NCBI GenBank assembly: GCA_026770705.1
Contig: JANJGN010000030.1
Span: 13,206,001-13,270,000 of the forward strand
Direction of reading: 5' to 3'
From: Isurus oxyrinchus
Taxonomy: Eukaryota
DNA: 64,000 nt
Within the stretch, counting starts at the first letter, position 1; each line of letters starts with the position of its first letter. The notes beneath the pieces are model-generated. The model searched no databases. It saw only the letters and a program-made list of their open reading frames with translations, and was not told the origin of the DNA. Of the stretch, positions 32,441 through 62,287 are shown one piece after another. Position numbers and translations under genes: made by a program.

Positions 32441-33548
32441 ATGGATACCAGTGAAGAGCTTCCAAAAAAAGTCTTCAAGGCCAGAAAAACAATGCGCGCA
32501 AGTGACCGACAACAGCTAGAGGCTATCTATAAAAGCAGAGAGGAACTTTTAAAAGCCAATGAAGAGACCAAAACTAAACTGTGTAATGGTAGACATGAAA
32601 ATGGAGATTGTGACAACAAAGCTTCACTAAATACTAACTGCATGGATGATGCTGACATTGATAGTATTAATGATGTGAGGCTGGGACCTGAGGAACTGCA
32701 AGGCAACTCCATTGATGAACTTAGTATCACACAAACACCTGAACTAAACTTTGCTGAAAAATGTCTTAATGAAACTAAGGATTTAAGCTCAAAAGATGAA
32801 AAAATGGACTCGACATCCCCAGCTGCTAAAGATGAACAGATTTCTACTGGGAGCACAGGAAACCAAATTTTGGTAGATGTTGAGAGCAAAAGAGATGACA
32901 CTGTGGAATCAGACTGTGTTGAGTTGAAGCAGGATTCTTTAATTGCAGATAAATCATGTTCTGATTCTCAGAGCCTTTCAGAAAAGGAAAGACCACCTTC
33001 TGTTGATGACAGCAGGAGTCAGGAAATACCAGATGAAAGTAGCCTTAAGCTCCAGTCTTCCTCTTCCTCTGTGAGAGAAAAGGAAGACCATGAAAGTTCA
33101 TTGGACATTAGTGAAGAGGCAATAACAAGTAGCATAGAATCTGTGCAGGAGAAAAATGATTGTGAAAGCTCTAAGATGGAATGTGCAGAGACTGAAAGTG
33201 AGATTGCAACAAAAGACAAATTAAGTGAGAACAAATCAGCTGAGAACAACCAACTGGAAATTGAAGAAATAATCCCCATTTTGGAGAAATTGGCCCCAGA
33301 GAAGGACAATGAAATAGCCTGTAACCAAGGAATTGTTCCTGTAGTGGATTCCCCAGCACCAAAGGACAGTCCATCAAAAGACTTGCAGGAAGAACAGATG
33401 GACGCATCTCCATGCAGTTCTCCAACAAAAGAAGAGTGCAATGGCAACTTGCCAGAAGAAGCATTCCTTGTTTTATCAGATGAGGATGAGCCAATAATTG
33501 AGAGTAAAACAGAAAGTGAAGAGCTGGTACCAAAAAATGATGATCCAG
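32441..33548 (+). CDS. ATF7IP: ATF7IP/MCAF1 first coding exon (exon starts 32431, ATG 32441, ends phase 1)
   Basis: MDTSEELPKKVFKARKTMRASDRQQLEAIYK, NGRHENGD, EEIIPILEKLAP and LPEEAFLVLSDED match the ATF7IP N-terminus. Acceptor ttttcttgctttcag, donor CAG/gtatgc. Confidence 0.96.
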
Positions 33549-36500
33549 GTATGCTTGCTTGGTGTTGTGCTGCATTGTCACTGAAAATATTTTGGATGTA
33601 ATTTGGTGCTAAATTTAAGGGTGCTGATTCTCCCTTTCACTTGTTAGGCCTGTTCTCATCAATTGTAAATGTCCTACAATTGTAAAACGTATATGCAGTT
33701 CTGATTGGCAATGACTCCATAACTTGGGCTGGAAGGGTGGCTGGCATGTAGTTGTGGGAATTTCATATTGTAGATGTGGGTATTTTTGAGGCTGTGCATT
33801 AAAACAGAATAGAAACAGTTTTACTCAAACTTAAGTGATATGAATGGTTTAGGGTTGCAAAAAGAAGGAACATAACCCCATTTCTAAGCATTAAGATTTT
33901 TCTTTGATCAGTTCCAAAAATATTTTTAAGTAATTGTTACCAAAGTGATGAATGTCATATCCTGAATATATCATATAGATGCAGAAACAATGGGAATGAG
34001 TAACAGAAAAACCTGAAAAGTAAAATAATAGCTCTATATAATACCTTTAATATAGAAAACACTCAAAGGGTCTTCAAAGATGGAATGGGACAAATAAAAA
34101 CGGAAGAGCTTAGAAAGGGTATTTCCACAGGGGCTAGATGGCTGAAGGAAGCCCTCCAATAGGAGAAGGGAATGAAAGATTTACAAGTGGCCAACCATAT
34201 ATAAAACTGTGAATCATTTTATTGCCTAAGTTTGATTGTTAATTTGGTAAAATTAAACATATACAACTGTTAAATGCATGTACTTGCAATAGACTACAAA
34301 TGCTGTTGGGAGGAGTAAAGAAGGAAGATGTCAATGATTTTAGTATTCATGCTTTTTGATATATAATTTTGCCCTCCTCAGCTATTTGTAATGCCTTGTT
34401 TTCTGTTCCTGTTATGTCATTAGCACAAAAGTTTATAAATGTCTTGGTTGCTTGATCTTTGTACCTTTTTGATATCGGTCCACTGAAGCTTGCCTCTGCA
34501 TGGTTAACTCTCTGGACTGCAGTTTTAAGACATGCATCTGAATCTTTCCTAATAACTGCGAATCACAATGCCGCTCTTTCAGCATTGCACAACATTAGAT
34601 GGAATATAAAAACTGAACCCTCTGCCTTAGCAGCTAAATATGCTGCTTGGTTTGGATCAGGATTATGGAGGGAAAGATCAGATTGCACTCCACATAGCTA
34701 TCTAGTTCCTGCTGGAAATTACAAATGAAGACAGAATTAGCCTCACTGTGATCAACTAGCCAATGAATAGCTTGATGGCCGCTGTTGCAGCTGGCCATTT
34801 AGACCCCATGTGCCCTGGAGCTGCTTATAGCTGTGAACCCGCATCCCTCCATGATTCACTTGGGAGAGGAGTGGCAAAGAGTGTGACAAAATATGAAGTT
34901 ATGGAATGGGAAAAGGGTAATTTGCCCATCAAACCCCATTCCTCCTCCCACAATGTATAATCCAGCTTCAGGATGGAAAATATGCTCTTTCAAATTCTGG
35001 ATAAGATCTGAAGAAGACTGTTTAATTGCTGGAAGGCAGCCCTGACTGCAAAAGTGTCCAGCCCTTCTGTTGCAGTGAATTTTGGTTCCTTGTCCCCATA
35101 GAAGTAAAATTCAGCTTTGTGGATGAGATGGAGAAAATCAAACATACACACACACACCCCTGCTCAATATTCATACTTAGCATTTATTTCCAGCACAGTT
35201 CTGTTCAATTTTCACTGGACGTTTAGCGTTCTCATTAACACGCAGTTATCAGTGCCATTAGAAGCAATCATTTGGTTTCAGTCTAGATACCAATCCAGGT
35301 TAATATCAGCAGAAAGGATCAACAGTAGGCTGTGATGGCTCCTGTTAAATGGAAACATAGGTGCAGCAGTAGGCAATTCGGTCCATCAAGCCTGATCCAC
35401 CATTCATGAGATCATCGCCAATCATCTATTTTTTGAAGGCAAGGCAGGAAGAAGACTGTTTAGCTGTTGAGTTTGTCTCAACATATTGCTAGTTTTTCAT
35501 TTGAAGATGGTTTTACAGTACCTGCAACTGCCTAAGAAGTGCAGGCTTTGACAATTCAAGTATTTCCCCGTAGTGCTGTGTGCTCGGTTCTGTCTGAACT
35601 CTAAAGTTAGTTGTTTTGCTAACCTCTAAGAAGACTTCCCTCTTCTCGGAGAGGAGCTTTATCTCAATATTTTCTTCTGGCAAAACCCTCAAGTTTCGTT
35701 TTGCCATTCCACGATTGGAGAAGTATTCATTTGACACTCTACATACTTTTACAAATTACTTCCTAACAAGGACTCTGACCCTTGGATCCCAAGAAGACTA
35801 CAGGTCAAATATTTCCAAGCTCTAATTAGCTATTTGTATTGGTAGAGATAACAAAAATAAATTTCAACTAACCACCTGTTCGATGACAATAACTTTGTAT
35901 ATTGGAAGTTTGTACAAAGGTCCGAATTATTGGTTCTTTTTATATATTTGCCTGTATTCAGCTGTTTTTGTTCTGTGGCCTGACTGGTTACAGTCATAAT
36001 AAATAATTGCTCTGATGCGTTTCAAGGTTAGCAGCTTGACTTTAGGACCTGCTCTCAATTTTAGTTACAGAGGTGCTGGTCACAGATAGTCAGTGACTTG
36101 TGCTAGGTGTTCTACTGCTGCTACCTAGTACCAAATGATGCAGTAGCGTAACCCAGGCATGGAAAAATAGGGTTGCATAGTGATCAGAACTAGACATTCT
36201 GTCTTTTTGTGTATGCCCTCCCCATGTGTTTCTCTAGTCACTTCAAAAGCATACTGAGAAAAACTTGGTGAAACAAGACCAGACAAAAATTCATTACGCT
36301 GCTTTAATTCACTAACTGCAGGTGAATTTAGAAAAGTTAGAGTAAATTCCACTCTGTTAACTCAATCTCACTTCACTCATCAAAAAATCATTGAAGTAAT
36401 AAACTATACACTGTCTTTTTTGCAGGCAGACTGACTGACAAGTTTTTGCATGCTGTTGCCTTTAGACAAGTTCTAACTCTAAGACCTAACCTGCATTTGT

Positions 36501-37139
36501 AGCTTAAGCCAAGAGCTGTGTCTCAGTCATTTATTCTAAACCCCTGAGCATGGGCTTTCTTTTTAGTTCCTATACCAAGTGGTAGGGCATGTGCAGTGTT
36601 GTTGACACCTTCCTGTGCATGGATTCACCAAGAGTTTTGTCAACTAGACCCTCCTTGGCGCATATTGTTTGTTAACGTCTATGCAGCATCCATCTGCCAC
36701 CTACAATGAGGTGATAAGTTACTGAATGTCCCAGCTCATTTGACTAATGGACCTGAGATGCAATAATAGATCTTTGCATCAGTCTGAAATTGTGATATTC
36801 CCCACACTAGCTTGTTTGGTTCGAAGGCCACAACCTACAGACATTGACAATATGTATTTCATTTTGCAAATTCAATTTGTTTTAAACATAACTCTGCCCC
36901 AAAATTGTATGTGAAGATGTGAAATATAAATGTTATCAAAGATATTTGAGGACATTTTGAACCCATAAGGATGAAGACAGTAAATTTCAGTTAAATGCTC
37001 AACTATATGCAACATAAAAACATCTTGTCCTCCCCCTCATTCCACTAGTTTTGTGACCTTTCACTGTTACATTTGGCTTTACAGTTAACATTAAACCTGA
37101 ATTTTCCTCTGTCACTGATTGAGGTATTGGTATTAGACG

Positions 37140-37525
37140 TGAGCATAGGAGTAAGAGTAGGCCTTTCAGCCCCTTGAACTTTCTCTGCCATTCAACTAGA
37201 TCATGGTTGATGATCTACCTCAATGCCATTTTCCCACACTATCTCTCTTAACCCTTGATGCCTTTGGTATTCAGAAATCTGTCAACCTCAGCTTTGAATA
37301 TAATCAGTGACTGAGCTTTCACATCCCCCTGGATAGAGAATACCAAAGATTCACCACCCTCTGATGGAAGAAATCCTCGCTATCTTGGTCCTAAATGGTC
37401 TACCTCTTATTCTGAGACTGTCACCTGGTTCTAGACCCCTCCCCCTCCATGCCCCAAACAGGGGAAACATCCATTTGCATTTGCCCTGTCAAGCCCCATA
37501 AGAATTTTGTACACTTCAGTGAGGT
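37140..37525 (-). mobile_element. CR1 (HER1-like) LINE 3' fragment
   Basis: Reverse complement of the tail at 45700-46090. Confidence 0.75.
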
Positions 37526-37606
37526 AGAGCACTACCACAAAGTGGATGTTTCACTGTTGAATTATATAGTGACTCAACAGATTTTTTTTTACATTCTGCT
37601 TCATAG

Positions 37607-37657
37607 ATACAGACCATAAAGAGCAAGCAGCTGATACAAGACAAAAGCAAGAACCAA
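37607..37657 (+). CDS. ATF7IP: ATF7IP second coding exon (51 nt, phase 1-1)
   Basis: Acceptor ttttacattctgcttcatag, donor A/gtaagt; open in frame (DTDHKEQAADTRQKQEP). The call rests on splice signals and position; sequence similarity is weak. Confidence 0.75.
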
Positions 37658-38859
37658 GTAAGTAGTTTCTTCATTGGAAGCGTTGCGCAAAATTGATTAT
37701 TAAGATACGATGGTATCTGAATACTGTTTATCTGTATTCTCTCTCCTTTCTAAAAAAAAGTAGCAATGTTAGTCACTTCACACCATCTCCTTTACTGGTA
37801 TAAGGGTCCAGGCTACTGGCTTCTGTAGCAGTCGTCTATTTTAAACATGTTTAAATAGCATTCCATAAAATAAAGCCCCCAGATGTTAAAAGGAGTGCTA
37901 TAGTCAGTGGCAATAATTGTACTCCTATGTGGTTGTGATTTAATTTGCTGAAACTAAAGGCGTAGGTGAGGTTCAGTGGCCTTTGAAATCAGTGATTTAG
38001 CATACACTTAATGGTCCAAAACAGTTTCTTTAACTGAAAGGTTTTTCATAGTTTGAAGAAGATAATAGTTTGGACATAATCAACTATCATGGCAATTGTG
38101 GACATTTAGCAACACAGATCGTGTTTGGTCGTACACAATGCTAACTATGCATATCAAAAAAGTTATGAACAACACAACCATGATTTCCATATGCATTCCA
38201 AGTGGCAAGTGAGGTTTTCTTCCAGTAGCACACACTTCGAAAAATCAGCCCTTAAATTCCATTAAAACATAGGCTTGGTCTTATAAAATTGTTTCCAAGC
38301 ACATTGCTGGGATGGTTTCTGGTATTAGTCTAACCTAAGTAACCTGCGCTTATGGAACAAATAAGTCAACCTTAAGAATAAGCCTTATGTAATCTGAAAT
38401 GATTGTGAAAGGTAGTTCTGAATAACTTGCTCATTGAGTAGCCATACATAAGTATAAATTGAGCCCTTCACATCTTGCAAATTGGATGCCACAGTTGACT
38501 GCAAACAGCATTGATTTCTGGCTATTGCTCCATCAGTATATCCTCAAATAAATTGCCAATGAAACCCTACTTCAAAAAGTTTAAAAATAATTAAGATGAT
38601 GGTTATATCTGGTTTTAGGTTTGTTTAAATAGTGCTAATGACCTCATCAGGATAGTTGAAGGAGCTACTGACCCTAATAGTAACAGCAGTTTGAATTGAC
38701 ATTCAGAGTTGGTCATAAATCCACAAGTGATTGAGCATCAGCTGTACAGTGCATAATCAGTGGCCCTGCACAGAATCCCTTCTGAGTCAGTATCCTAACA
38801 TTCACACAAAAATGAAAAAGCAATTAAAAAGGACAAAATTGATGTTTGCCATTGTTACA

Positions 38860-40010
38860 TACAAACATACAAATTAGGAGGAGGAGTAGGCCATTTGACC
38901 CTTTGAGTTTGCCCTGCCATTCAGTAAGGTGATGGCTGATTGTTGCTTCAACGCCAGCCACTTCCCTGCTTACCCCCGATGTCCTTTCACTCCTTTGTTA
39001 GTCATCTACCTCTGCCTTAAAAATATTCAATGACCCTGCCTCCACTTCTCTCAGAGCCAAGTGTCTGGAGAACTCTTCCCCAGAGAGCAAATATTTCTCC
39101 ACAGCTCCATCTTAAATGTGGGGGCCCCTTATTTTTAAACTGTGTCCCCTGGTTCTGGCCTCTGCCACAAGAGGAAACACCCTTTCAGCATTCACTCTGT
39201 CACGCCCCCTCAGGATCTTCTATGTTTCAATAAGATCACCTCTCATCCCTTTAAATTTCAATGTATACAGGCCCAGTCTGTCCAACCTTTCCTTATGAGA
39301 TAATCCTTTCATCCAGGAATTAGTCGAGTGAACCTTCTCTGAGCTGCTTATGATGCAGTTATGTGTTTTCTTAAATAAGGAGACCAAAACTGTATACAGT
39401 ACTCTAGATGTGGCCTCACTAATTCCTGTAACAAAACACCCCTACTTATTTATTCCATTCCCCTTGCAATAAACAACAACATTCCATTTGCTTTACTAAT
39501 AACTTGCTGCACCTGCCTACTAACTTTGTGATTCATGTACCAGGACACCTAGATCCCCCTGTACCTCTCTCCATTAAGATGATATGCATTTTTTTAATTC
39601 TTCCTGCCAAAGTGGACAGGTTCACAGTTTCCCACGTTAAATGCCATCTGCCAATTTTTGCCCACTCATTTAACCTATCTATAACCCTTGCAAACCCCTT
39701 ATGCCTCTTCACAACTTATTTTTCCTACCTATCTTAATTCAATCCCTTCATCCAGATGATTGATACAGATTGTTAAAAATTGAGGCCCCAGCACTGATCT
39801 GTGGCATTCCACTTGTTACATCTTGCCAACCTGACAGACCCATTTATGCCTACCCTGCGTTTCTTGTTAGCTTACCAGTCTTTTATCAATGCTAATATAT
39901 TACCCTCTACGCCATGAGTTCTTATTTTGTGTAGTAACCTTTTATGTGGCGCCTTGTCAAATGCCTTCTGGAAACCTAAGTACACCACATCCACAGACTC
40001 CCCTTTATCC
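38860..40010 (-). mobile_element. CR1 (HER1-like) LINE 3' half
   Basis: Tail taggaggaggagtaggccatttg; minus-strand RT remnants (LEYCIQFWSPYLRK; VYLGFQKAFDKAPH). Confidence 0.85.
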
Positions 40011-42329
40011 TTTACAGTTTTTTGCAGACACATTTTCTTTAAAAAGGGTTGTCTTTGGCTCTCCAGCTTTTGAATTGGAAATGCTCATAAAAACAAATAC
40101 TTAAAGATTTAAAATGCAAAAATATATTCCCATCTCATTACTTCGGAAATTTATGGTACGTCCTGGTTCAGAGACTGTACAATTTAAATAACCTTTTGGG
40201 AGTAATTTAATCTTTGGATGTCATTGACTTCACAGAACACTGCAAGTCAGCATTCATTTTCTTGTATATCCTGGGTGAGTTATATAAACATACCCAATTT
40301 ACAGTACAGCTACTTTGCATTAAAGCACAACAAACAGAATATTCCTTAAATCCACAATACCAACGAGTCTTTACAAGATCTAGCATGCAGTGGGTGGAGA
40401 AGAGATGTTAGTATTTATTGAATGTCAAGCATAAAAAGTGCTTGTACTTATAACCAACTGTGGCGGTAGTAGATGTAGTTGTCACTTTTATCGGTAGTTT
40501 TGCACTTTTATGTTATTAATCCTGAAAGAGCCATGAAATGTAATTTACTCATTCAGATGTCATTGGAACTTTGAGGGGATCTGACTCATTGTTGGTTGAT
40601 AAGCAATACCTGAATTTAATGTGGTTTTTGTGTAAAGGTTGGTGGTATGTGTTAATCTTGATCTAAAGAGTTTTTGTTTTCTGAAAACCGACCTTTAAAG
40701 CTGATTCTCAGCCACTGAAAACTGATTATTAAAAATTAGTCGCTCCCATCAAAATAATAGTTGAAAACATCCGTTCAACTTGGAGATGGCTTCCTTGGCC
40801 TTTTTTGAGGGAAGCGGAAGAAAGTAAAATAATTGATTCTGTTTGGCTCTAAGCTGGGAGAAAAATTGAGCTCTTAGGTTTCTTGAGTAATATTTCTATA
40901 CATACCAAATAAAGGCATTATCTACACTGCAAGGAAATTCAAGGAAATGCACTTTGGGGGCAATTGAGACACGTTAATAAATACAAATTCTGTAAGCGTT
41001 TCTATCTTTCAAACTTATGAAATGTTGTAATGCTTTCTGTTCTTGAGATGCATTGTATGTTTTTAAACTAATTTGCATCTGTTATAAATAAATATGTACC
41101 TCTTCATAAAAATGAGATTTTGGGAGTTTGGCAGTGGGAGGCAGTTGTGACTTCACTTTCTTTTTGTTGGTTTGCTTAGCTGTCTAATTTTATAAATTGT
41201 AATTCCATGTTAACCAGGGTCATTTGCCAAAAAAAATACATCATAGACCTATGAAATTTTTGTAAAGCCCAGAATGTTACAAACGGGCTTACTTTAATAA
41301 CCATATTTTTATCGGAACTGTAGGGATAGGATGGTGGTGAAACTGAAGACCTATCTTCTTTACCTTTTTGATGCTCATCAAGGAAACGAGATGACAGTAC
41401 TGTTGAATGGAACACTTTTCTTTGCACCCAAAGACAGCATTAGGTACTTCCAGGATAGCTGTAGTACATGTTAGGTAATAATTTAGTGATGCCCAGCCCA
41501 GTAATGTGCTTTCATGTTAGCTTATAAATAACAGCCACTACTGCACCAGCTCAAAACTACCATTTGCTCTTCTAAGCCCTTATGGCCTCCAGGAATCACA
41601 TTGCCCATTTCGTGCAAATCACGGTCTATGCTTCACCTGGATTTGACTTTGAATGTGACTGCCCAAGCTTGACTTCACTAGGAACCTTAACCATTATTTT
41701 CCCTCCATCTGCTTGGTGTAAATTTGGGTCCAGGTCTGGTTACTGAACCACAGAGTCCCCGGCTTATTGCCCCACTTGTATGAAAGGCAAAGGATATAAG
41801 GTAAAGAAATGCAATAATTTGTTTTGTATTATAGTCCCTCCCATCAAAATAAAAGAAAGTGTATTGAGTAGAGAAACAATGTTCAGAGAAGGTCAAGAAA
41901 TGAGTAAATTGAATTGTTAACAAAAGTGTAGGGCTTTAGTAGCCACTTGAAGATAGAATACATTTTTAAATTACGAAAATATTGCACAGTTTATTGTCCT
42001 GCAGATTGGCCAGCAACATAAACTGGTGGTATAGCTTCCAGTAATGAATGTATCTTGCCAAAACCCTAAACCAGAAGCATTTATCCTGTACGTTTGGTAC
42101 CCAATTTTAAGTGTTCACACCTAGAAAGCTGATGTGTTACGAATTACGCTCCCTTCAGCCTTCGCCATCTAGAACATGAGCATCTGATCAATCAGTGAAT
42201 GTGAGAAATGCTAAAATATAGATCAGAGTTCACAATGAATCTAAATTTTGTATGGTGGTGTAAATCCAAAGATTGTCTCTTGTAACTGAAAATTATTCTG
42301 GTTACTTTTTTTTGGATCCATCTTTGTAG

Positions 42330-42475
42330 ACGAAGTTGTGCCACGAAAAAGGTCCAAGTCTGAAGATGCGGAAAGCAGTATATCCAAGCGGTGTCGGTTT
42401 TCTGAAGATGAATATGAGGCTGCCTTAAAAGTGAAGATCACTGCCAGAGGGGAGATCCGCCAGACGCTGGAGAAG
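42330..42475 (+). CDS. ATF7IP: ATF7IP third coding exon (146 nt), with basic NLS-like segment and start of SETDB1-binding region
   Basis: (N)EVVPRKRSKSEDAESSISKRCRFSEDEYEAALKVKITARGEIRQTLEK, similar to mammalian RRKRSKSED...EYEAEFQVKITAKGDI. Acceptor tctttgtag, donor AAG/gtatgt. Confidence 0.95.
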
Positions 42476-43194
42476 GTATGTGACCTGGACTGTTGAATCA
42501 GTGGTTCAGTCTTCTGCCCATGTCATTTGGGAGAAGATCATTTTATCACGTTTCATCAAGGAGCAAGCTTAGTGATCTCAAATATATGAAAAAGTCTGCT
42601 TCTGAACTATTGGTTCTGCTGATTATTGGCTCTGTTGTTTTTGTACAGAGGAATTCAGTTAGTTTGCCTATTCAGTACATTTATAGTTTTTTTTTTTGTA
42701 AAGTTCTAAAATATTTTGTTTTTGGCATATTATTTGTAGACACGCTGATGTGACTCTTCCAGTAAGGATGCATTTCTTTTCATCTTTTCGCATCTTATTT
42801 TTTTTGACTGAAGCCTTTTACTGAACCCAGGTTTTTGTTGGTTTATTCCACACAGGAGCATTAGAGTTAATCCCATGTATCTACTCTATTCATATATCCC
42901 TATATCCCTTTATTCCCTTTCCTTCAAACAGCCATCTAAACTACTTTGCAGCAGAGACCATGTCAACATCAGATCAGTAACACTCATAGAGCATTCCATA
43001 GTCTCTCAGTCCTCTCTGACAATTTAAATTGTGCATCCTTACTTGTGATGAGTTTAAAAATTTACTGGCTTCGCTGATTGGGAACCATAAAAAAAAACAC
43101 TTGCCATACCTCATCCAATCTCGGTTGCCAGTATGCCAAAGGTTTCTTAATTCATGTAGCTGTTGTCCAGGTAAAGTATAAATTTGTAAAGTTT

Positions 43195-44461: not shown

Positions 44462-44611
44462 GTAATCTGATGCATATTCTAGGGAAAACACTCCGCCTAC
44501 TAACTTTTATTGGAGAAAAGAGTTGGAAGGGAAGAAAAACAATCAATGTAGATCATTTGAAACTGAATAATGGAAAAAAAGTTTGTAGTAAGTAACTATT
44601 TTTTTATACAG

Positions 44612-44749
44612 ATTGTTCAACAGATTATTGAAGAACGCATCAGTTCCATGCAGAGTGGTGTTTTCGACAAGAAGCTGGCAGAGCTGAAAAACAGAGTAGA
44701 AAAGATTGAATGCAGCACGAGGCATGAATCTTTAATCAGTGGCTTACAG
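44612..44749 (+). CDS. ATF7IP: ATF7IP fourth coding exon (138 nt), SETDB1-binding coiled coil; GC donor
   Basis: IVQQIIEERISSMQSGVFDKKLAELKNRVEKIECSTRHESLISGLQ, similar to mammalian VFDKTLAELKTRVEKIECNKRH. Acceptor tttttatacag, donor CAG/gcaagt. Confidence 0.94.
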
Positions 44750-45529
44750 GCAAGTACTAGAATCTGTAGCTTTCTGCGATGTAGAGGGTAGAAATAATTT
44801 GGAAATTCTGGGCTGACACTGATGCAATTTTACATGCCCTGTGCATGAACAGCCAGAGCATGGTAATTTTTCAGAATTAGTTGAGTTTTTTCTGTAGTCC
44901 AAAATCCCAGATTAACATACAATAAAAGCTGACTTTGCCTCAACATGCACAGTTGAAAATAAGATGGTCTGCCATTGTCCAGTCAGCTAGAAAGATTGTC
45001 ACTGCTGAATAGTAATCATGTTTATTAACATGTAACTTTTGTTCCTACAAGAATTTATCACAAACAATGCAAACGCTGTAAATTTATGGCTCCCAACCTA
45101 ACTTTGAAGGATGTGGATTTGCAGCTGCCTTTGACCAAAAGAAGGAAGCAAGAGCAAATAAATGTGTGCCATATTTCTCTGCCTTTCATTAACTCGCATT
45201 GACAAAGACCTATTGGCAATTCAGGCTTGCTGCTTTACCATGTTGCTGTGTGAAGTACTTTCTTCAAGCAGAACTTGCTCTTTTAATGATCTTATCACAA
45301 AAATCCTGAAAGGTACAATGCAAAAAATATAATGACTAAAAACTATCAGTCATAAATTATTGATTTGAAATTTCTGCTTGTTTGCTTGATCTGTTGTGAT
45401 GGTCCCAGAATCAGACATGCACAGCAATTGCCTCCCAAACTATACATGATATCAACGATGAAAACACAAACCAAAAACGCTTGGCTATTTTTGAACGTTG
45501 CAGAAATCTTAACAGGCGCTATCTTAACT

Positions 45530-46093
45530 CTGCCACATGTCACCTGGAATATTGTGTGCAGTTTTGGTCATCTTATCTGAGGAAGGATGTTCTTGCTATA
45601 GAGGGAGTGCAGCAAAGGTTTACCAGACTGATTCCTGGGATGGCAGGACTGACACATGAGGAGCGATTAAGTCGGTTAGGATTATATTCGCTGGAGTTCA
45701 GAAGAATGAGGGGGGGATCTCATAGAAACCGATAAAATTCTAACAGGACTAGACAGGGTAGATATAGAAAGGATGTTCCCGATGGTGGGGAGTCCAGAAT
45801 CCGGGGTCACAGTCTGAGGATAAGGGGTAGACCATTTAGGACTGAGATGAGAATTTCTTCACCCAGAGAGTGGTGAGCCTGTGGAATTTACTACCACAGA
45901 AAGTAGTTGAGGCCAAAACATTGTATGTTTTCAAGAAGGAGTTAGATATAGCTCTTGGGGCGAAAGGGATCAACGGATATGGTGAGAATGCGGGAGCAGG
46001 CTATTGAGTTGGATGATCAGCCATGATCATAAGGAATGGTGGAGCAGGCTTGAAGGGCCGAATGGCCTACTTCTCCTATTTTCTATGTTTCTA
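45530..46093 (+). mobile_element. CR1 (HER1-like) LINE 3' end, well preserved
   Basis: HLEYCVQFWSSYLRKDVLAIEGVQQRFTRLIPGM...LGLYSLEFRRMRG; tail gaagggccgaatggcctact...ttctatgtttcta. Confidence 0.9.
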
Positions 46094-48541: not shown

Positions 48542-48622
48542 GCAAAGCTCATGCAAATAGAGAAAAGGCTAGGCTCAGCAAATCAAGCTCGCAATGATTC
48601 TGCCTTGAAAAAAGCACAAGAG
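48542..48622 (+). CDS. ATF7IP: ATF7IP fifth coding exon (81 nt, phase 0-0)
   Basis: AKLMQIEKRLGSANQARNDSALKKAQE, similar to mammalian AKIARLTKRF...LKKRHE. Acceptor cttttctgcag, donor GAG/gtaggt. Confidence 0.9.
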
Positions 48623-51911: not shown

Positions 51912-52076
51912 AAGCAAATCTTGTGATGCTGGAAATCTGAAATAATAACAGAACATGCTGGAAAAACTCAGCAGGTCTGGTAGCATCTGTGGAGAGAGAA
52001 ACAGAATTAACACTTCCAGTCCAATATGACTCTTGTATGAATCATATTTTACTTGAAATGTTAATACTGTTTCTCT
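51912..52076. mobile_element. Penelope-terminus-derived repeat with partial inverted arm
   Basis: gatgctggaaatctgaaat...gctggaaaaactcagcaggtctgg, same family as 31851 and 59847. Preceded by a CR1 tail fragment (about 51760-51905). Confidence 0.65.
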
Positions 52077-52519
52077 ATACCTGCAATTATAGTACCAGGC
52101 ATGAGTGAATTGCTACATCAGATCTGTTACCTGAGATCTGCTGAATACATGTAGATGGTTATGGAACTTCATGGCATAGTCTTCAACTACTACTACAAAA
52201 TAATTTTGGCCCCCACAAATTTGCACAATTAAGGCATAGTTGTAATCTCTATTTAGGCTGTTTATAGTATTTTGTATGTTTTGCAGCTGTTGCAGTTTCT
52301 AGGATTAAGAATGGGGTAAATAAAACATTTTGATAACTTGCTTTGCTGCAGACCAACAGTTGAGGCTTTCACCTTTTTTAGAATTGCAGCAATGCTTTGG
52401 CTAGTGACCTAGAGAATTCTAATCTACTGCAGCATAACTGTAATTCTAACATTCCTGCTGTTAGTTCTGAAGGTATTAATGCTCCTAATAGTGCCCTCAA
52501 CAATAACATGAGAGTTACT

Positions 52520-52795
52520 ACATAGAGGGCATTTAAGAGTCAACCACTGCTGTTGGAACTACATGTAGGCCAGACCAGGTTAAGAGTGACAGATTTCCTC
52601 CCTTGACAGAGGAAGGACACTAGGGAACCAAATTGGATTTTGCAGCAATTTGGTAGTTTGATCACTATTCCAAATGTAAAAATTAATTGAATTTAAATTC
52701 CTCCAGCTATCCTGGTGGGATTTCAACTCTTGTCCCCAGAAATTTTGTTCAGGCCACTGGATTACTAGTCCTGTAACATGACTATTATGCTACCA
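52520..52795 (-). mobile_element. tRNA-derived SINE
   Basis: Minus strand begins ggtagcataatagtcatgttacaggactagtaatccag (tRNA-like) with B-box-like gagttgaaatccc; the body matches 20785-20850. Confidence 0.6.
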
Positions 52796-52910
52796 TCCTC
52801 CCCTGGCTGTGTACTTGGCTCAGAAACCTCCTAATTTGGTATTTGGAGGGGAGGTGGGGAATAAATGCAGACTTAATAGATTTCCATTAGAGCTGCACCT
52901 AGACAATCCT

Positions 52911-53012
52911 AAACAAAAACAGAATTACATGGAAAAACTCAGCAGGTCTGGCAGCATCGGCGGAGAAGAAAAGAGTTGATGTTTCGAGTCCTCATGACCC
53001 TTCAACAGAACT
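52911..53012. mobile_element. Short Penelope terminal fragment
   Basis: Near-identical to 29224-29326. Confidence 0.75.
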
Positions 53013-55477
53013 GGGTGAATCCCCTGTTCACCAACTTCAGCAGAACAGCTCCTCCGCTGAGTGTGGAGATACAAAATGTGGGTGTTTGTGAGAAGATGAA
53101 ATATCACAAATCCTTTAATAAGGGATATTTAACCTATCAGTGGGGAGCAAGGAAGTACTTCAGATTGAAATTATTGCTCTACAATTTTTTTCCAGGAGAT
53201 ATTCTAGGAGTTCTAAATGTTCTAGGAGATATTCCTATTTGTAGTATATTCTGGCTCGTAACAGGAACATAACCAGGCACAATCATGAACCATGGCCCTG
53301 TGGGTTGCATTTTTTAGACAACTTTAATATTAGTTGGATGTTACTACTTCGTCCTGTGCGTCTTACCACTGTTTAAAGTGTCATAGGTTACTTTGTTTAT
53401 TTTGTATTGATCGTCAGTGAACTGTCATAAATGAGCTTTTTGTAGCAGTTTGGTACAATGATTGACATGCAGTGGCTGCTGTTTGAAAGTAATCTGCTGA
53501 CCAGATGCCAGTCATGCTAAATTTTCCAGCCAAAGCAAATCTCTAATTTGTTCTTGTGCAAACAACCTGTTTGTGGGCAGGTTGGGGGGTGGGGGTCTGG
53601 GGCGGGGGGGTGGGGGGGTGTTGGGGAAGCAAGGATTCAGACAAATTGTAGTCTGTTGAAATTACAGTGTGTGACTGAGATTGGAAGGTGATGCAAAAGA
53701 GGGAAAAGATTGTGAATTTTCTTTTGGAAACTTCAAAAATTTAGAGGTACTATAGGATCTGCACCTAGTGGAGGTATAAATTAGAACTGTTGTATGGGCT
53801 CAGTATTCATGCCTACTGCCCTGCCACCATTCTGTACAGGCTCAGACATCACAACCACTGTTCAGCTGTCATTCTGTTCCATACTGGGAGCTTGAGAGCA
53901 CCTCAATTTTCTAACAGCACGATGGACCTCATGATTGGCTCAAAAATGTTATTCAGGCTGAAACTTCATTTGGCTGCATTATGTTGGAAAATAGTTTGAT
54001 TTACACTGAAAATTAATAATGATTTTTTGAAACCATGCATATACTTGATTTTGTTAAAGAATTTGTTCTCAAAAGCTGGAAGATGAGGTTCTCGTGAAGT
54101 GTGAAAACGGGAGTCCAAATACTTAGATAAAATTAAAATTTTACTGTTTACTGCCATAAGCAGAATTTTGGAACCATGTTACTGACAAACACTTTTTAAA
54201 TTGGATGGATTTCCAAGCCAGTAACTTGGAGTTTTGAACCACCTTTTGTTATCAGGATTGTTCCTCACTTATTACTGTAGTTGTACAATTGCAGTCTGTC
54301 TTAGATGTAGAGATTTGCAGGAAGTACAGATTGATTTTGCAGTGAGCATTGAACACATTGAGAAAACTCAATGGGCTGATTTCCAACTGCCATGTGGAGA
54401 AGTGCACCTTTGGTTTCAGAACCATTCACATGGAGTTTACAGCTTTTTGATTGGATGATCCACCAAAGCTAGTGTGTTGTAAAGATCCCAGTTAAATTCC
54501 TGATGCACTGAACTTGTATCTGCAAGAACCCTGAAAAAACAGCCTGGTTTTCCTCCTCTTCCTCTCGTGATTGATAAGTTATTGATGTCACGATGACTTG
54601 ACAGCCTTCATTCGTTGACATGTAATGACACTGCTGTGGCATCACTGAACAGGATGAGACAAGTACATTTAACTCAAGTAAGTGAGCAAAGTTCTTTTTA
54701 ATCTAATGAAACCATCTGTAAAGAAAGACCTTTAAAGTTAGTGAACTGAGATGAAATGTTATGGGTTGAATAATATATACTATGAGTTGTGATGTACCTG
54801 TTATATGATTCATTTGAATTCTTTGGGCAATTATGCCGGAGCACAAGTTATTTGAAATCTAATTCTCAACTCTGTAATTGGATAGGCTAACAAATGTTTC
54901 TGTTGTTTGAGGTTCAGACTCTTCTCTATTTGGGTTGTAACAAGCCTCCACTATTTGTGGTCTTGAGCTTCTGACTCGATATTGAAGCTTTGCAACTATC
55001 AGGAAATCAAAATCATGCTTGGGTTTTATTTTGAACCAGGAGTGCAATCAATTTGGATTTACTTTGTAGAGTTGAGTAGTGAAAAATTACTAACGCCACT
55101 CGACCCTGAAAATAAACAAATGAGTCCTTGGCTCATAACCAGCATGCTGAAGTTTCAGTGCTTTGTTGTAACCCTAATATTGTGGAAACTGCTTTTAACA
55201 GGAGTGCTGTACATTCAGTGAAACAGACTGCTGGCTGCAATATTGTATAACAGGTGGTGGCATTGCCCCAGACTCTACATGTGATGCACTGAAACCGCTG
55301 AAGTAGTTGCCATCACCAGATGGTTTCTCGTGTTTTCTTCTGCCACCATCCAAAAAGTCAATTGTTCATTGAATCGATTGAAACTCAAAGGAACACAGTT
55401 TAATCATATTTATCTTGCCCCAAATTTTAAGAGGTTCGCTGGCTTTACTGGCAGGTTCTTCTGTTTCTTTGTCTCAG

Positions 55478-57196
55478 ATTCTTGCACCTTTTCAACCAGA
55501 AATGCAATTTGACTTGAGCAACAGAGAGGAGTTCAAGTTGGCAAAGAAAAATGAGACACACCAATTTGGCAAGTCCATTGTGGAGATGGAACAGGTTCTA
55601 CTGCAACTAAATGAAACTCTGTCTCCAACAGGCCCGGCAAGTGTATTGCGCAATCAACAAGTTGCATTACAAGATAATAGATCCGGTAAGCCTTTGAAAA
55701 AGCAGAAAGTTCCACTGGAGGATTGGAGGGTTTTTGCTGAATCAGGCAAAGCTGTTACATTAAAACAACAGGCTCTGTTGCAGCATAACAGAACTCTAAG
55801 TATTAAACAGAAACCCACTACAGATAAACAGCCTGCATTAATAAATGATCAAGGTTACTGTAACTCATTTGGGGACATTATAGTGGAGGAGCATGAGGCG
55901 CCATTAAAAATTAGTAGAACTTCAAAGAGTATGTTTGTCCAGTTAACCACAAGGAAACCACAGGCTTATAATAGTATGTCTGTCAGGCAAAAGTCAGTTC
56001 TTTTACTAAAGGCTAATGGCCCCAGCAGTATATCAAGAAAACCTGACCCAGGACAGCAACAGGTGATACTACTTGAGGAAGTGACTCCCTCTGTTGTCCT
56101 TGATGAGCCTGATGTAAGTAAACCACATGTAATATTACAAGAAAATAAGACTCAGTATAATGAGAGAACTTCAGAAAATCAACATACAGTATTGCTAGAG
56201 AATAGAGCTCCCTTTAATGCATTTGCTGAACCTCCTGTGGAGCAGCAGGTTCTATTGCCGGATGACCAAACTCCCAAAGGCATTTATAAACCTGTCCCAG
56301 ACAACAGAAAGAGGATGATCATACAAGATAGCATAATTCCCTACAATACAAAGAGAGCCACCGCCTGGGGCATTCAGGCTTGGGATGAGTGGGCTAGAAA
56401 CCGAAATAACTGCTTCATGGAAAATAATATGGAATGCTGTGAGTCAACCCTTTATGTGCCGGTACTGTCTCATGAAATAACTCACAGTGAACTGAATTTC
56501 TGGCTGTGCCACTTTGTGGAAGAAGTCCGTCGGCGGGATGGATCATTTTATCCACCTAATTCTCTCCGTCTCCTGTGCTGCTCCATCTTGCGATACTTGC
56601 GTGAAACCTGCCAGCGACTAGACATTGATTTCTTTAACGAATATAATATGGAGTATGCTGCATTTCGGGCTATCCTTGACAGACGCATGAGAAAACTTAA
56701 ACAACAGGGGATTGGTATAGTAAGGAAACAAGCACAGCCTTATTCAGAGGAAGAGGAAGAAAAACTGTGGCAACTAGTTTTTCAACTTCACGATGCAAGA
56801 AGTTACAGTTATGCTGTCTATTTCTACCTCTGTAAAGTCTTTGGTGTACACGCAGCAGTAGAACACAATAAATTGATGGTTGATCAGTTTACCTTTGGAG
56901 CTGATGAAATTGGAGAATATTTGGAATTTGTGGCAAAGCCTTACAGAGGCGGGATCCAAAGAACTAAAGGACACACTTGGCAGTATGCAGATTTAACCAA
57001 CCCAAGGTGTATTGTTTCTCTTTTTCGTCGCTACCTCAGCATGGTTCCAAGTAATGGTCCGTTTTACCGGCGCCCTCTTCCCGGGCGGCTGGAATTCTGT
57101 CAGCAGGCTATTGGAGTTCACACACTGGAGCGTTACTCCAAAGAAATCTGTGAGGCAGGTGGCATTTCAGGACGGCATACTGGCCAATCTGGAAGG
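55478..57196 (+). CDS. 1719-nt exon: degenerate repeat region plus Crypton/DUF3504 tyrosine-recombinase-like domain; predicted alternative ATF7IP exon
   Basis: Uninterrupted 573 codons. IPYNTKRATAWG...W..W, ELNFWLCHFVEEVRRRDGSFYPPNSL, LDRRMRKLKQQGIG...EEEEKLW, FGVHAAVEH, NPRCIVSLFRRYLS, FYRRP, IGVHTL and HTGQSGR are DUF3504/Crypton motifs (ZMYM2-4, QRICH1, KCTD1, KIAA1958 type). Acceptor ttcttctgtttctttgtctcag, donor AGG/gtaagt, both phase 0. Confidence 0.9.
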
Positions 57197-59846
57197 GTAA
57201 GTATGAACAGTGTTTTGTTAATGTTGCAAAGACAGTAGGTGTTTTACTCCCTGGTGTCTATTATATGCATTTCAATGCATCTAACAGTCTGTGTAGAAGT
57301 TAACCCATTGTAGGTATAGTTTGTTGTTAGATGCTATATTTATGCATTCTGTATTTTAAAGGTCAAGTGACAAAGCCTCTTTTTTTACACAATTGTGAAC
57401 TGGAAGAAAACTTAAGTTGCATATACTACTGCATTTTAATTTGATTGCTTTGCCTATTTTAACCCCAATCACTGGTTCTGCTGCCTCCACTTTTGGCACT
57501 TGCTTATAGACCAAATTTAGCCTTGATGCAGCCTTCACTGAGACCCAAGATTGTCTGGTAGGAGCTAATATTCAAGAAGGCTGTCAGATTATATTGTTCA
57601 TATATTCTTCATGCTTTCCCCCTTCTACCCCCTCATCCTTTCCAGTAGGTTTCTGCACGTTGGTCCTTCCAGTGCTCAGGAGTCTCGTCCAACTGCAACA
57701 GGGGTAATGGCAGTCAGTCCTGGAACTTGAATTGCAACTAATAGGCTAAAATTCTACTGCGTGCCACCTGCATTTCTGTTAGCTTCCCACCAAAAGGATG
57801 TCATAATTGTCTAGTAACTGGGAAGCTCTGAGAAACCAATTCCATAATGTTAAAAATGTTGCTTTTAAATTGGGACTCATTAAGATTGTACTGTAAGTAG
57901 ATCAAGTCATCTTCAAAGTGTTGTGGTTACAATTCCATTGAAATTGATGAAGTTTTTGTCCAGCCAGAAATAAATTTGCTCCAGTAACAGACATGGTTGA
58001 ACATGATCTGGAGAGATTGCACCTGTATAATTATAGCCTGCTTCCAGAGATGGTAAATAGTTTCCCAATACACTCTGGTAGCCTTTTCTGAGATTATTTC
58101 AGCTAGGATGAGACTTTTCATGTTGCTTCAGTGGGAATATGAACTTATTCGAGTGTATGATACCATTCAAAAAATCAGCTCTGATTTCCAGTGTTGTAAC
58201 CCCAAAACCAAATATAACCAACTAGAATAAAACTTTATCCTGTTTCCTCCCACCCTGACCTTTTCATACATTAACTTTGCAGTAAGCAGTGATTTACAGA
58301 GATGTGTGAGATCCGTCCATCAATTATCTTTTACTGCAGAAACTTTTTTTCAGTTAATGAAATTTCATTGGTGAGAGCACTCTTGACAGGACAGCTAGAT
58401 TAATTCAAAATTGACATTGATTACCTCTCAGATCATAGCATATATATAAAATAATGTTTATTGCAATGTGCAGCTGCCACCTCCTAGCAATAAAAGTTTT
58501 CAAATTGTTTTTTGACAAAGATATTTTAACTAGGCTTACTGTATTAGGGTCCAAAGTGGGTTCCACTTAGATTGCATTCCTTGCATTATATTCAACAATT
58601 TAATGAAGAATTTGTTTAACCTTTCCAAAAGAATATATTTTCAATTATATTAAAATTTAGGTTCTGAATTATCCTAGTCAAACTCTCCAGACGTTTGACG
58701 GAACCTTAACGAATCATGTAAAATATTAAACTTCATATTTTAATTATTCTGTATAGGACCAGAGAAATTAGCTTGAATAAGAATAATGCCATTTTAAAAC
58801 TAGTATTAGGAAGAATTACTTTACGAAGGGTGATAAATTCTGGAATGAACTGCCAAAGTAGGAGGAGGAAAAGGGTTTTCTACAAATTCAGCAGTTTGGT
58901 TGCTAAAGAGATGAGTTTTGGTGAACTCATTTACCATCCTCACTATAACTGTTTGATATGACTTTTGAATAAGTTGGAAGACTTGATAAATCTGCATTCC
59001 AACTGTAGCAAATCCTCCACTGTTTCCGTGGCTTATGGAGGACTTCCATTTTAGTACATGGTCTGTCTCATTAGAAGGTTTGAGAACCTTATTTCAACAG
59101 TGTTCAGTCTTGGGGGCAGTACAGTGAGGTTGAAGGTACTAAGAGCATTTGTAGGTAAGTGTTAAATCATTTTTCATCAACATAATCTGACAGCACAGCT
59201 TATATGTCATCACTGAGTTCCCTTCCTAGCTATTGCCCTTATTTTCATAGTTTAATATTGCCAGACCTAAATGTTTACCTAAGACAAAATTTAAAAACAC
59301 CATTATCCGAATAGTTTCATTTTTTGAAATTGGATTTGTATTTTTTGTTCACAATGACCATTGACGTTCTAATCAGAAATTGAGAAAAGCTTTGTCATTT
59401 GAACTTTAAAAAAACTTTCTGATAATTTTTAATACTTGATACTTGTGGCTTATTGGTGTTAATACAGCGGAGCCCTGCAACAGATCAACATCCAAATTGC
59501 AAAAGGATTTTTCCCCCAGTGTTTAACCATGTTAAAATAATATTAGCTATATTCTAAAGTAGCAGCAAATTTTGTTAACAGTATTGTGATTTCAATAAAG
59601 TTGATCTGAAGTGGACTTCGTCACAGTCTTGAGTTATTGCTGTTGAATTAAAAATGCAGGGTGCTGTATGTGCTACTCTCTCTGATAAATTGTTCATTGC
59701 AAGTATGTATACAATAAGCCCTCACTTTTGCACTGTGACAGACCCCGGTACTTTTTACATTGGGTATCAACTGTCAGTGATGATGGAAACCACCATTTCT
59801 GTATCTTCCTTTATCCTCTGCTTCCCCACCACAACGATGAAGCTAA

Positions 59847-60060
59847 CTGAAATAAAAACACAAAATGCTGGAAAAACTCAGGCCTGGCAGCATCTGAGGC
59901 AAGGGAAATGGAGTTAATGTTTGACTCTTCAGAGTTCTGAAACGGACTCGAGACATTAACTCTATTTCTCTCTCCACAGACACTGCCAGACCGGCTGAGA
60001 TTTTCCAGCATTTTCTGTCATTATTTCAGATTTCCAGCATCCACAGTATTTTGCATTTAT
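59847..60060. mobile_element. Penelope-derived hairpin repeat
   Basis: ctgaaataaaaacacaaaatgctggaaaaactcag pairs with ctgagattttccagcattttctgtcattatttcag. Confidence 0.75.
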
Positions 60061-62029
60061 CTTGATGAAACTGTGTGACAGGAAATGAGTTCTGACATCA
60101 GACACTGCACATGCCTGAGCTATAGTTATTACTAGCTGGCTTTTTGTTTGCTTGCACTAGCAAACCTGATGATCAATCTTGATCAATGCTGCTCATCGAA
60201 TTGCTAAGCTGTTGTTACATCAGTCGACAACAGGATTTGTCCAAGTGGCTGAGATCAAAATTTTGAAAACTGAAATTCAGCTGCAAAGTAAAACTGATGC
60301 AGTATGCCCATGATCTCACAAGTACACTTTTTTTGTTGGCATCAGTATATTGGAGAAACACATCAATTACTGTATTCTGTTTTTTGTCCAATGGTATAGT
60401 GGGGGCCTATTGTATATTTGTTGCAAAAATAATTTAATTCATCTTAGACTGAAACATTCAACAACAGAAATTGCTGACTGTAGTTATACAAATTTTTATT
60501 GAACAAAGAGTTCAAACTCTTCTAACTCCAAGCCCTTGCTCATAACTTTGCATCTAGTAAATTGACCAGTGACAATTTACTTAAGATTGAGCATTGTAAC
60601 AAGTGTTTTTCCTTTTTTGGGGGGGGGGAGGGGGGTTGGGACAGGAGAGGGAATTCTTTTGTTGATGTCTTTGACCATCCAAGCTATTGAAGAGATTTTT
60701 TGGGGTCAAGTATCAGCAAATTCTGTATATTGCTTAATATTTTGTTTTTTAGTGATAGTGGTTTTGAATGTATAATGTGGCTCTCACTTGGGTTTTCTGA
60801 AACTGCCAAATTAATTTATGTTTAACAAAAAAAATCTCTGGTCAAATTGGTTTTGCAAGGAAAAAAAAATATTGACTTGTGCTGTGGTAGAAGTCCATGA
60901 GTCCTGTCTTCACTGGGCCTGCAAACAATTGAACTTGCTGGATGGATGTGCATCCATTGCTATTGAAAATTGACTGGATCACTCAATTTATGTTCACCAG
61001 CTTCACTGTTGCTAAACGCACAAGAGTGTAGAATATGATGTAATTAACTGAGGTGCAATGTTGTTGTTACAGAATTTAAATTAGCCAACCCAAAAAATTC
61101 AGAATGGAAGTGATGTCATGGCATATTTTTTTGGACCTTGCTGTTATAAAATTCAGAATTAAAAGATAGATAAATGTGCCCTTGGGTTTACCCAGAATAA
61201 AGCCTTCATCATGGTTCTCTTGCCCTTCAATTAAATTCTGCTTGCTGTCCTATTTAATCCCTTTAATCCCACTTCTTCCCCCTTGTCCATTTTTTAATTC
61301 ACTTGACACAATCACTTTTTAATGTGAATTTCACACTTTTTTAAGGATCTATTTGTGTCACACTGGTTAGTTATAAGTGTTTATAGGTGCTAGGTGACAA
61401 CCTAATCCCCACCAAATTGCAATGATAGTCATTGCAGAAGTGAGCTGAATGGGTGTTCAGCGATTTTAAGATGTGTTGAATGTATCTCCTCTGAGAGAAA
61501 TCTATTATACTGGTGAAACCCTATTATTGTCATTTCACACTATTGCATTTGTGTTGCCTTTTAGTTTACTTAAAAGTCAACTAGGCATTAACAGAATTCA
61601 CCACTTGAGTTGTATTGGCAAAATGTTTATTTCTTTGTGGAACCATAATTGCAAGTACTGTAAATCCTTTTGCTATTGTGTTTCGCAAACCTTTTGTATA
61701 GGGGAATGCATTAAAGGTTTGGATTTCCTAAATGGCTTTCCCAGTTCATGATATGGCTGACCAATGGGGCATTACAGTCATTCTGGCAAACAAAAAGTAG
61801 TGCTACTATGTTGTACCTTGCAAATGTTAATTAAATTCACCCCAATTTCAAAAAGCCAAAACCGTAAGAAGAAAAACCATTTTGATGCAGTTCAAATCAG
61901 TAGCGCCTAAGTGGTTATCAAATGAAAAATCTTAACGACGAACATCAGAAATCTGTCTGCACAACCCCAGTGACTTGTTCATCTACGCAGGCCTATTTTT
62001 ACTTTTTGTGTGTGTTCATTTTGTTGTAG

Positions 62030-62287
62030 GCCAGCAGTGTAGCTGCCCTTCACAGTCGTGGCTTTGATGAAGAGCTAATTAAGGAACGAATGGGAAATGG
62101 CAGTAGTGCAATGATGTCCTGCAAAAAGACTCAAATGAAGGCAGTATCTGACTGTTTGCAGCCTCCAAATCCTTTGAAGAAAATCTCAGCTTGTTCACAG
62201 TCGTCATCTGCCTTGAGACAGCAAAGTGTTTGTGCACACGAAGCAGTGACCAATAGTCCCCAGCCAGAAACTGAAGTTACAAACTGA
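62030..62287 (+). CDS. Terminal coding exon completing the Crypton/DUF3504 domain
   Basis: Acceptor ttcattttgttgtag, phase 0. ASSVAALHSRGFDEELIKERMGNGSSAMMSCKKTQMKAVSDCLQPP continues the recombinase box II pattern (AT..T.L...G.DE.LI.ERTGH.S.....YK......VS..L). Stop TGA at 62285-62287. Confidence 0.88.
   Translation, partial: ASSVAALHSRGFDEELIKERMGNGSSAMMSCKKTQMKAVSDCLQPPNPLKKISACSQSSSALRQQSVCAHEAVTNSPQPETEVTN

Follow-up and report, generated by a model that had tools for sequence, protein, structure and literature searches.

An intact, conserved Crypton-derived recombinase in an intron of shark ATF7IP as a likely minor alternative 3' end of the gene

The DNA analysed here is a stretch of 64,000 nucleotides (nt) from the shark Isurus oxyrinchus (assembly GCA_026770705.1, contig JANJGN010000030.1, positions 13,206,001 to 13,270,000 of the forward strand), referred to below as the window; plain positions are those of the window and eight-digit ones those of the contig. 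It carries coding exons of ATF7IP, a cofactor of the methyltransferase SETDB1, and two exons derived from a Crypton transposon, exon 6 (55478-57196) and exon 7 (62030-62287), which occupy the intron ahead of the next canonical exon of ATF7IP, located at 13278485 of the contig. We call this Crypton-derived part Cry1, and a second Crypton-like frame further 3' in the gene Cry2. A preliminary description of the locus had joined seven exons into a single open reading frame, and this structure was verified: the lengths 1108+51+146+138+81+1719+258 add up to 3501 nt, or 1166 codons and a stop, with matching phases, all six internal exon starts are preceded by AG, and the donors are five GT and one GC (44749). 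The Crypton part was also found to be intact, as described earlier, where the coding sequence of other transposons is broken: its 573-codon open frame would be expected by chance with p ~7e-18 at the local base composition, with ATF7IP exon 1 set aside, the longest of the other frames in the window reaches 215 amino acids (aa), and the retroelement frames are short pieces.

Table. Features of the ATF7IP locus and of related Crypton-derived sequences in the genome. Positions are those of the window unless a contig is named.
Feature	Position	Strand	Basis
First coding exon of ATF7IP, from ATG to donor; N-terminus (aa 1-369) acidic and of low complexity	32441..33548	+	71-93% identity to five chondrichthyan models
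ATF7IP exon, 51 nt	37607..37657	+	frame and phase join
ATF7IP exon, SETDB1-binding coil (PF16788) begins	42330..42475	+	spliced to 44612 exon in X1, X2, X4 contigs
ATF7IP exon, coil middle, GC donor	44612..44749	+	PF16788 match; spliced contigs
ATF7IP exon, coil end; phase-0 donor common to canonical and predicted fusion routes	48542..48622	+	contigs, models
Acceptor 55478 and exon 6 start, homologous to 5' coding end of C14 sibling	55466..55585	+	blastn
Exon 6, 5' part: fast-evolving linker (aa 509-794) of degenerate repeats of ~22 aa	55478..56335	+	self-similarity, identity
Internal splice donor after 55685, joins canonical next ATF7IP exon	55683..55691	+	one contig
Exon 6, 3' part: predicted Crypton tyrosine-recombinase core-binding and catalytic domains; first Arg to His, HxxR His to Gln	56336..57196	+	profiles, fold
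Intron within recombinase coding sequence, at the same codon as that of the C14 sibling	57197..62029	+	spliced in X1 and X3 contigs
Exon 7: end of recombinase fold (second His to Asn, Tyr to Cys) and short non-conserved tail to TGA	62030..62287	+	alignment, contigs
Cry2, 456-codon single frame	contig 13287943-13289310	+	tblastn, published translation
Stand-alone Crypton-derived sibling gene, 507 aa	contig C14 27616186-27621942	-	homology to Cry1

The identification of the host gene as ATF7IP was upheld by a profile match of the SETDB1-binding coil family PF16788 to the exon at 44612-44749, by an FNIII exon (PF16794) of the same gene 61 kb past the end of the window, and by a GRIN2 gene (GRIN2B) 0.7 Mb upstream of the ATF7IP exons. 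Positions 4-99 of the 219 in PF16788 matched just upstream of the junction between coil and Crypton. A GC-AG intron (44749-44750) interrupts the SETDB1-binding coil and was spliced in contigs of three runs. A second FNIII gene, on contig C15, adjoins the other GRIN2 match and is presumably ATF7IP2, going by gene order.

Exon 6 matched the Pfam family QRICH1 (PF25561) with an E-value of 2e-16 and 60 bits, well above the cut-off of 30.8, and DUF3504 (PF12012) with an E-value of 7e-07 and 29.9 bits, just at the cut-off of 29.7, in line with the family assigned to it before; PF12012 fell below its cut-off in all three full-length Cry1 fusion models scanned. The AlphaFold model of the 99%-identical Cetorhinus protein had a pLDDT (predicted local distance difference test) of 92 and aligned with Cre at Z 17.6 and a root-mean-square deviation of 8.6 over 273 residues. 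Other tyrosine recombinases matched too, and the best Foldseek match of the Cry1 model was human QRICH1 in the Zincore-DNA complex (E 1e-8). Modelled in this way, Cry1 has a Cre-like tyrosine-recombinase fold with a core-binding and a catalytic domain. A homodimer prediction for the domain was uninformative (score 0.01), and a PDB search with the sequence of the full fusion protein gave no match. The catalytic columns R-H-R-H-Y read H-Q-R-N-C in the window, with four of the five residues replaced; H-Q-R-N was present in all eight Cry1 models, and the Tyr was kept in six of them. Because these residues are replaced, DNA cleavage by Cry1 appears very unlikely. Animal DUF3504 domains are usually devoid of the catalytic residues, according to PMC13465315 and PMC10579616.

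Exon 6 consists of three parts, a 41-residue start, a repeat linker and a recombinase core whose end is encoded by exon 7. The self-similarity of the linker peaked at a lag of 22 in the window and in Heptranchias, where the score exceeded those of all 200 shuffles, and linker length ranged from 279 to 472 aa across six models. Identity across five fused models was 79-91% in the core versus 39-74% in the linker, and 89-95% in the coil; the core (333 residues of the fold) matched ATF7IP exon 1 in conservation and far surpassed the linker. Protein models of Cry1 were found in eight other species, and the closest listed proteins were those of Carcharodon (100% over 170 aa) and Cetorhinus (99% over 289 aa). 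The ratio of non-synonymous to synonymous substitution rates (dN/dS), estimated at ~0.10 between Cry1 and a sibling on contig C14, agrees with the constraint predicted earlier, but it compares paralogues and not orthologues, with synonymous divergence near saturation (pS, the proportion of synonymous differences, 0.73). At the DNA level only two genome copies were detected, Cry1 itself and the 68%-identical sibling, and at the protein level three matches among 25 candidates scored, all of these counts being lower bounds; the earlier view that Cry1 is not a recent many-copy transposon therefore stands. The Crypton-derived exons are intact, low in copy number and conserved, and their sequences suggest a domesticated gene whose orthologues are intact and under purifying selection. 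A Crypton that arrived recently or is still active, or an active recombinase, would also possess a complete frame and a two-domain Cre-like fold, but this is almost certainly not what the locus holds: the copies found are two and well diverged, both shark and skate models have the sequence behind the coil, and the catalytic positions are replaced as described.

Presence throughout jawed vertebrates had been envisaged, but within the protein searches made the close homologues were cartilaginous-fish proteins only. An identity of at least 50% over at least 100 residues was reached by 28 of the 329 fetched proteins, 27 with cartilaginous-fish names and one unnamed. No teleost or tetrapod name occurred among 43 matches, many of them nameless, in a comparison that covered protein records. 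The label 'ZMYM2-like' used earlier holds as an analogy only, since human QRICH1 was 19-22% identical to Cry1 (structure alignment; phmmer E 0.0012) versus 32-46% for invertebrate Crypton-like proteins.

Transcript evidence was taken from assembled contigs of five of the 23 listed runs (including X1-X4 and X6), which we presume to derive from RNA. The first placement of these contigs was swamped by repeats, and its joints were listed in part; the second used a repeat-free stretch. ATF7IP exons 3, 4 and 5 were joined in contigs of X1, X2 and X4, and 57196 was joined to 62030 in X1 and X3 contigs, which come from two studies, the join itself showing splicing. One X1 contig exits exon 6 after 55685; its loose end gave no exact pattern match and was placed with two mismatches on the canonical next ATF7IP exon (13278485). 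Because this contig splices from exon 6 to a canonical ATF7IP exon, exon 6 and ATF7IP share transcripts and belong to one transcription unit. The segment 55478-55685, read as a 208-nt cassette, shifts the frame and stops 33 codons into the next exon; it may also be an alternative first exon, with an ATG at 55611 in frame with the downstream exon. The same contig could mean that the exon mainly tunes the dosage of ATF7IP, either through nonsense-mediated decay of transcripts with the cassette or through early termination that yields a coil-only competitor, the recombinase being secondary. This seems decidedly improbable, as the contig is single, of low depth and unspliced on its 5' side, and such a role leaves unexplained why conservation of the fold equals that of ATF7IP exon 1.

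Isoform models at NCBI usually rest on transcript alignments. In five of the eight species (Mustelus, Heptranchias, Heterodontus, Rhinoraja and Scyliorhinus canicula) these models fuse the coil to Cry1, and four of the five use the same acceptor as 55478. Several observations weigh against such a fusion in I. oxyrinchus. The 48622/55478 junction was present in no contig of the runs examined, no loose end was detected at 55478 in X1-X4, and no such joint was among those listed for X1, X2, X4 and X6, a listing short of 150 joints. Contigs of X1 (from 55132) and X3 (from 55263) enter exon 6 from upstream and run across 55478 unspliced, and intronic contigs of like depth occur; because of both, part of the RNA signal may be pre-mRNA. 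One X2 contig was unspliced across the 57196 donor and one X6 contig across the 62030 acceptor. The skate model takes another acceptor, and three of the eight models, including those of both nearest relatives, Carcharodon and Cetorhinus, are unfused. Of the junctions named in the preliminary description, 57196/62030 was thus seen and 48622/55478 was not, and the fusion by alternative last exons is borne out by the exon 6-7 splice and by the models of five other species but not by its own joint. We consider it very probable that a coil-Cry1 fusion exists in elasmobranchs, and likely, with less assurance, that the exact 1166-aa form is made in this species.

The unspliced entry into exon 6 would also be expected if Cry1 were a nested, separately started gene like its sibling on C14, the fusion being occasional read-through taken up by annotation pipelines. 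The three unfused NCBI models are separate genes, the C14 sibling starts at an ATG of its own that is immediately preceded by a stop, and in-frame Met codons are found at exon residues 9 and 37. Yet no Met position near the start of exon 6 is common to the six models compared: the Met at residue 9 is absent in Mustelus, and that at residue 37 in Heptranchias and Heterodontus. Moreover, the region aligned to the start of the sibling is now a pyrimidine tract, with a 2-base indel in X1, the three separate models start in three different ways, and five species are modelled as fusions. We regard a nested gene as unlikely.

The unfused state of both lamniform models, together with the junction unseen in the runs examined, could instead mean that the fusion is real in other sharks and skates and fading in mackerel sharks, so that the 1166-aa form is rarely made here. 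The change of Tyr to Cys was found only in the window, Carcharodon and Cetorhinus, and the stop in the window (62285-62365 region) lies 26 codons before that of the Carcharodon model. The final 15-20 residues are not conserved and the stop position varies among species; in other sharks, too, the reading frame of the tail differs beyond ~aa 1150. The frame in the window is unbroken, and its core shares 99% identity with that of Cetorhinus and 92% with that of Mustelus. The 12 differences from the RNA contigs, small numbers as they are, comprise one non-synonymous and two synonymous changes in the core versus seven and two in the linker. These features argue against decay, and fading of the fusion in mackerel sharks appears improbable.

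The C14 protein belongs to a 20-member elasmobranch cluster (15 listed) and has a chimaera orthologue; its core was 97-98% identical across elasmobranchs and 85% in chimaera, and its intron lies at the same codon as that of Cry1. The sibling (e.g. XP_051867999.1) was 65% and the coelacanth protein XP_005994024.1 47% identical to the Cry1 core. The 41-residue start of exon 6 was homologous to the sibling N-terminus (0 of 2000 shuffles reached the score), and in blastn 55466-55585 aligned with the 5' coding end of the sibling at 67.5% identity over 120 nt (E 1.4e-4). Eleven of the 12 bases before the acceptor matched the sibling in the codon-fixed register (p 4e-6 to 3e-4), with the acceptor CAG facing the sibling Pro codon CCG. 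When the bases upstream of the acceptor were aligned locally without a fixed register, the score did not exceed chance (258 of 1000 shuffles reached it), and homology there is read from the fixed-register comparison and blastn only. The 55478 acceptor lies inside former coding sequence, one base from the sibling sequence, a change whose direction we infer.

At the first Arg, Cry1 has the codon CAC and the sibling TGC; both are a single substitution away from CGC but differ from one another by two. The second His is Asn in Cry1 and Pro in the sibling, in which the first His and the Tyr are retained in all 16 models. The coelacanth protein, a member of the same lineage, has lost a set of catalytic residues of its own. 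Trees of 38 and 14 rows, built without ZMYM and QRICH1 sequences, placed Cry1 and the sibling as sister groups, with the coelacanth protein outside them, followed by hemichordate and mollusc proteins. Approximately unbiased (AU) tests on 14 of the 38 rows rejected a split after holocephalans (p 0.003) and also a sister placement of the coelacanth protein with one copy or the other (p 0.008 and 0.009). By these tests the two copies would have separated before holocephalans branched and after the coelacanth line did. Because Cry1 and the sibling lost their catalytic residues by different changes, their common ancestor presumably still had all five, and the two would be separate domestications of one intact element, the coelacanth gene being a third. 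An origin of the sibling as an ATF7IP2-linked duplicate was rejected, as ATF7IP2-like and GRIN2 matches were located on contigs C15 and C30 and not on C14 (the first look for GRIN2 was stricter).

A Crypton in an intron of ATF7IP has been reported by Kojima and Jurka (PMC3212892) and by Frith (PMC9004415), intact in zebra finch, alligator and chimaera, and the preliminary description had suggested that Cry1 might be that element. This was not the case. Searches (tblastn) with the fusion proteins exposed a second Crypton-like frame, Cry2, ~20 kb past exon 7 in the same gene, and the alligator translation in Fig. S4 of Frith (PMC9004415) matches Cry2 along its length, by eye. Cry1 and Cry2 are 23% identical, and we rejected Cry1 as the published element, judging from that translation. 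Cry2 joins ATF7IP four exons later than Cry1 and groups with the KCTD1 exon (support 100/96, long branches). It retains R-H-R-H-Y in this shark and in six of six fusion proteins checked, and is possibly an active recombinase fused to a SETDB1 cofactor, as far as its residues indicate. Among 4865 candidates, 110 longer relatives of Cry2 were found, nearly all named ATF7IP isoforms of birds and turtles, the remainder being one frog and three cartilaginous fishes (sharks and a ray). A motif taken to be the SUMO-interacting site of ATF7IP was not found in six Cry2 fusion proteins; loss of the site is presumed. Because Cry1 and Cry2 lie in one gene, are 23% identical and are both modelled as fusions in Heterodontus, the shark ATF7IP gene holds two unrelated Crypton tails besides FNIII. 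Subscription papers aside, and likewise two chimaera 'fossil' contigs of Kojima's Table 3 that may contain Cry1 or its sibling, neither the open literature nor Kojima's supplements contained a description of Cry1, its sibling or two Cryptons in ATF7IP.

In mammals, residues 574-666 of ATF7IP (a 93-residue coil) bind SETDB1 as a 2:1 trimer, and ATF7IP also forms mixed trimers with ATF7IP2 (PMC12167477). An ATF7IP mutant that lacks FNIII was reported to retain SETDB1 binding and nuclear SETDB1 and to lose ZMYM2, MGA and MBD1 (PMC7706265). The coil match upstream of the junction in the shark is about as long as the minimal SETDB1-binding piece of PMC12167477, a correspondence by length and profile and not by alignment to the human protein. 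In the Mustelus fusion model the Pfam coil match stops three residues before the junction, and a fusion isoform would therefore keep the whole SETDB1-binding piece.

Taken together, we read the Cry1 exons, with a probability of about 0.6, as an intact, conserved, non-catalytic Crypton recombinase that forms a likely minor alternative 3' end of ATF7IP, in which the coil is kept and FNIII is replaced by a predicted DNA-contacting fold. In stem cartilaginous fishes, an intron-bearing Crypton with R-H-R-H-Y would have landed in the intron immediately downstream of the coil, in the same orientation as the gene. A phase-0 acceptor would then have arisen within the Crypton's own 5' coding sequence, one base from the sibling sequence, after which the catalytic residues would have been lost, the fold held by purifying selection and the spacer expanded by 22-aa repeats. 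If the mammalian data apply, the isoform would enter trimers of SETDB1 with two ATF7IP chains, keep SETDB1 nuclear, forgo partners of FNIII (ZMYM2, MGA and MBD1 among them), and tether histone H3 lysine 9 (H3K9) methylation via a dead recombinase. Its likeliest role, by model and analogy, would be that of a SETDB1 partner whose adaptor is swapped for a non-cutting, DNA-contacting fold on a long flexible linker; contact with DNA is suggested because of the fold and the title of the QRICH1 structure. A bolder possibility, which we put forward as speculation with low odds, is that ATF7IP is a repeat captor of transposon recombinases with three swappable tails in sharks (FNIII adaptor, dead Cry1 and intact Cry2). 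Mixed 1:2 trimers might use the Crypton tails as sequence-reading modules that place H3K9 trimethylation (H3K9me3) on Crypton-like or other defined sites, and Cry1 might mark a Crypton lineage, so far undescribed, that was domesticated on three separate occasions among early jawed vertebrates.

Elsewhere in the window, a fragmented element at ~7700-11000 on the + strand has a weak zinc-knuckle and reverse-transcriptase match and is one that we take to be Gypsy-like. Pieces of long interspersed nuclear element (LINE) type were seen, e.g. at 24748-25392 and 45400-45732, and no CpG-rich 1-kb block was found in the 64-kb window. Contig C4 carries two DUF3504 exons 25 kb apart, near 108.247 Mb and 108.222 Mb, which we take to be KIAA1958 b and a, respectively, in an order that fits the published one; the frame of the presumed b-like exon is open in this shark. 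Isoform b of KIAA1958 was reported absent from cartilaginous fishes by Kojima and Jurka (PMC3212892). A broken DUF3504 copy with two stops lies on the - strand of contig C8 (45636758-45637207), perhaps a KIAA1958L-like remnant.

SETDB1-ATF7IP is the main H3K9me3 silencer of transposons, and Cry1 bears on how it may be aimed outside mammals. Provided that the fusion is made, a DNA-handling protein of transposons has been wired to this silencer twice in one gene, by unrelated elements. The results correct a likely misfiling of Cry1 as the published element, add a conserved, uncharacterised Crypton lineage represented by an ATF7IP tail, a stand-alone gene and a coelacanth gene, and point to a probable one-base route to exon capture. 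NCBI and UniRef label the sibling and coelacanth proteins as 'uncharacterized' or 'QRICH1-like domain'. Earlier publications already cover the domestication of Cryptons, the presence of one in ATF7IP, and genes with two tails (KIAA1958), and the Cry1 fusion exists as uncharacterised database models.

The predicted Cry1 isoform resembles the published ATF7IP Crypton, Cry2, in host, orientation and a predicted FNIII-less alternative 3' end (PMC3212892 and PMC9004415). Unlike Cry1, Cry2 is a single frame with R-H-R-H-Y kept that joins four exons later, with fused models in birds, turtles, a frog, sharks and a ray. Isoforms a and b of KIAA1958 offer a similar case, in which one host gene ends in either of two DUF3504 exons that are distant relatives of each other (26% identity in human; PMC3212892), but the host and the lineages differ (18-23% identity), the KIAA1958 exons are intronless, and ATF7IP keeps a third, non-transposon FNIII end. 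As in QRICH1 and ZMYM2-4, the recombinase fold would stand behind a host N-terminus, and QRICH1 in Zincore (9HJT) is on DNA with a zinc-finger factor, by the title of the entry. In contrast to these proteins, Cry1 is 19-22% identical to QRICH1, has no MYM zinc fingers and is nearer to hemichordate, lancelet and mollusc Crypton-like proteins. With the C14 sibling Cry1 shares the intron position and a homologous N-terminus, whereas the sibling has its own start codon, other inactivating changes and a longer C-terminal tail. In SETMAR and in KRAB-transposase fusions, a chromatin-effector module captures a transposase by alternative splicing. Those are DDE transposases, whereas here a tyrosine recombinase would be carried on a methyltransferase cofactor.

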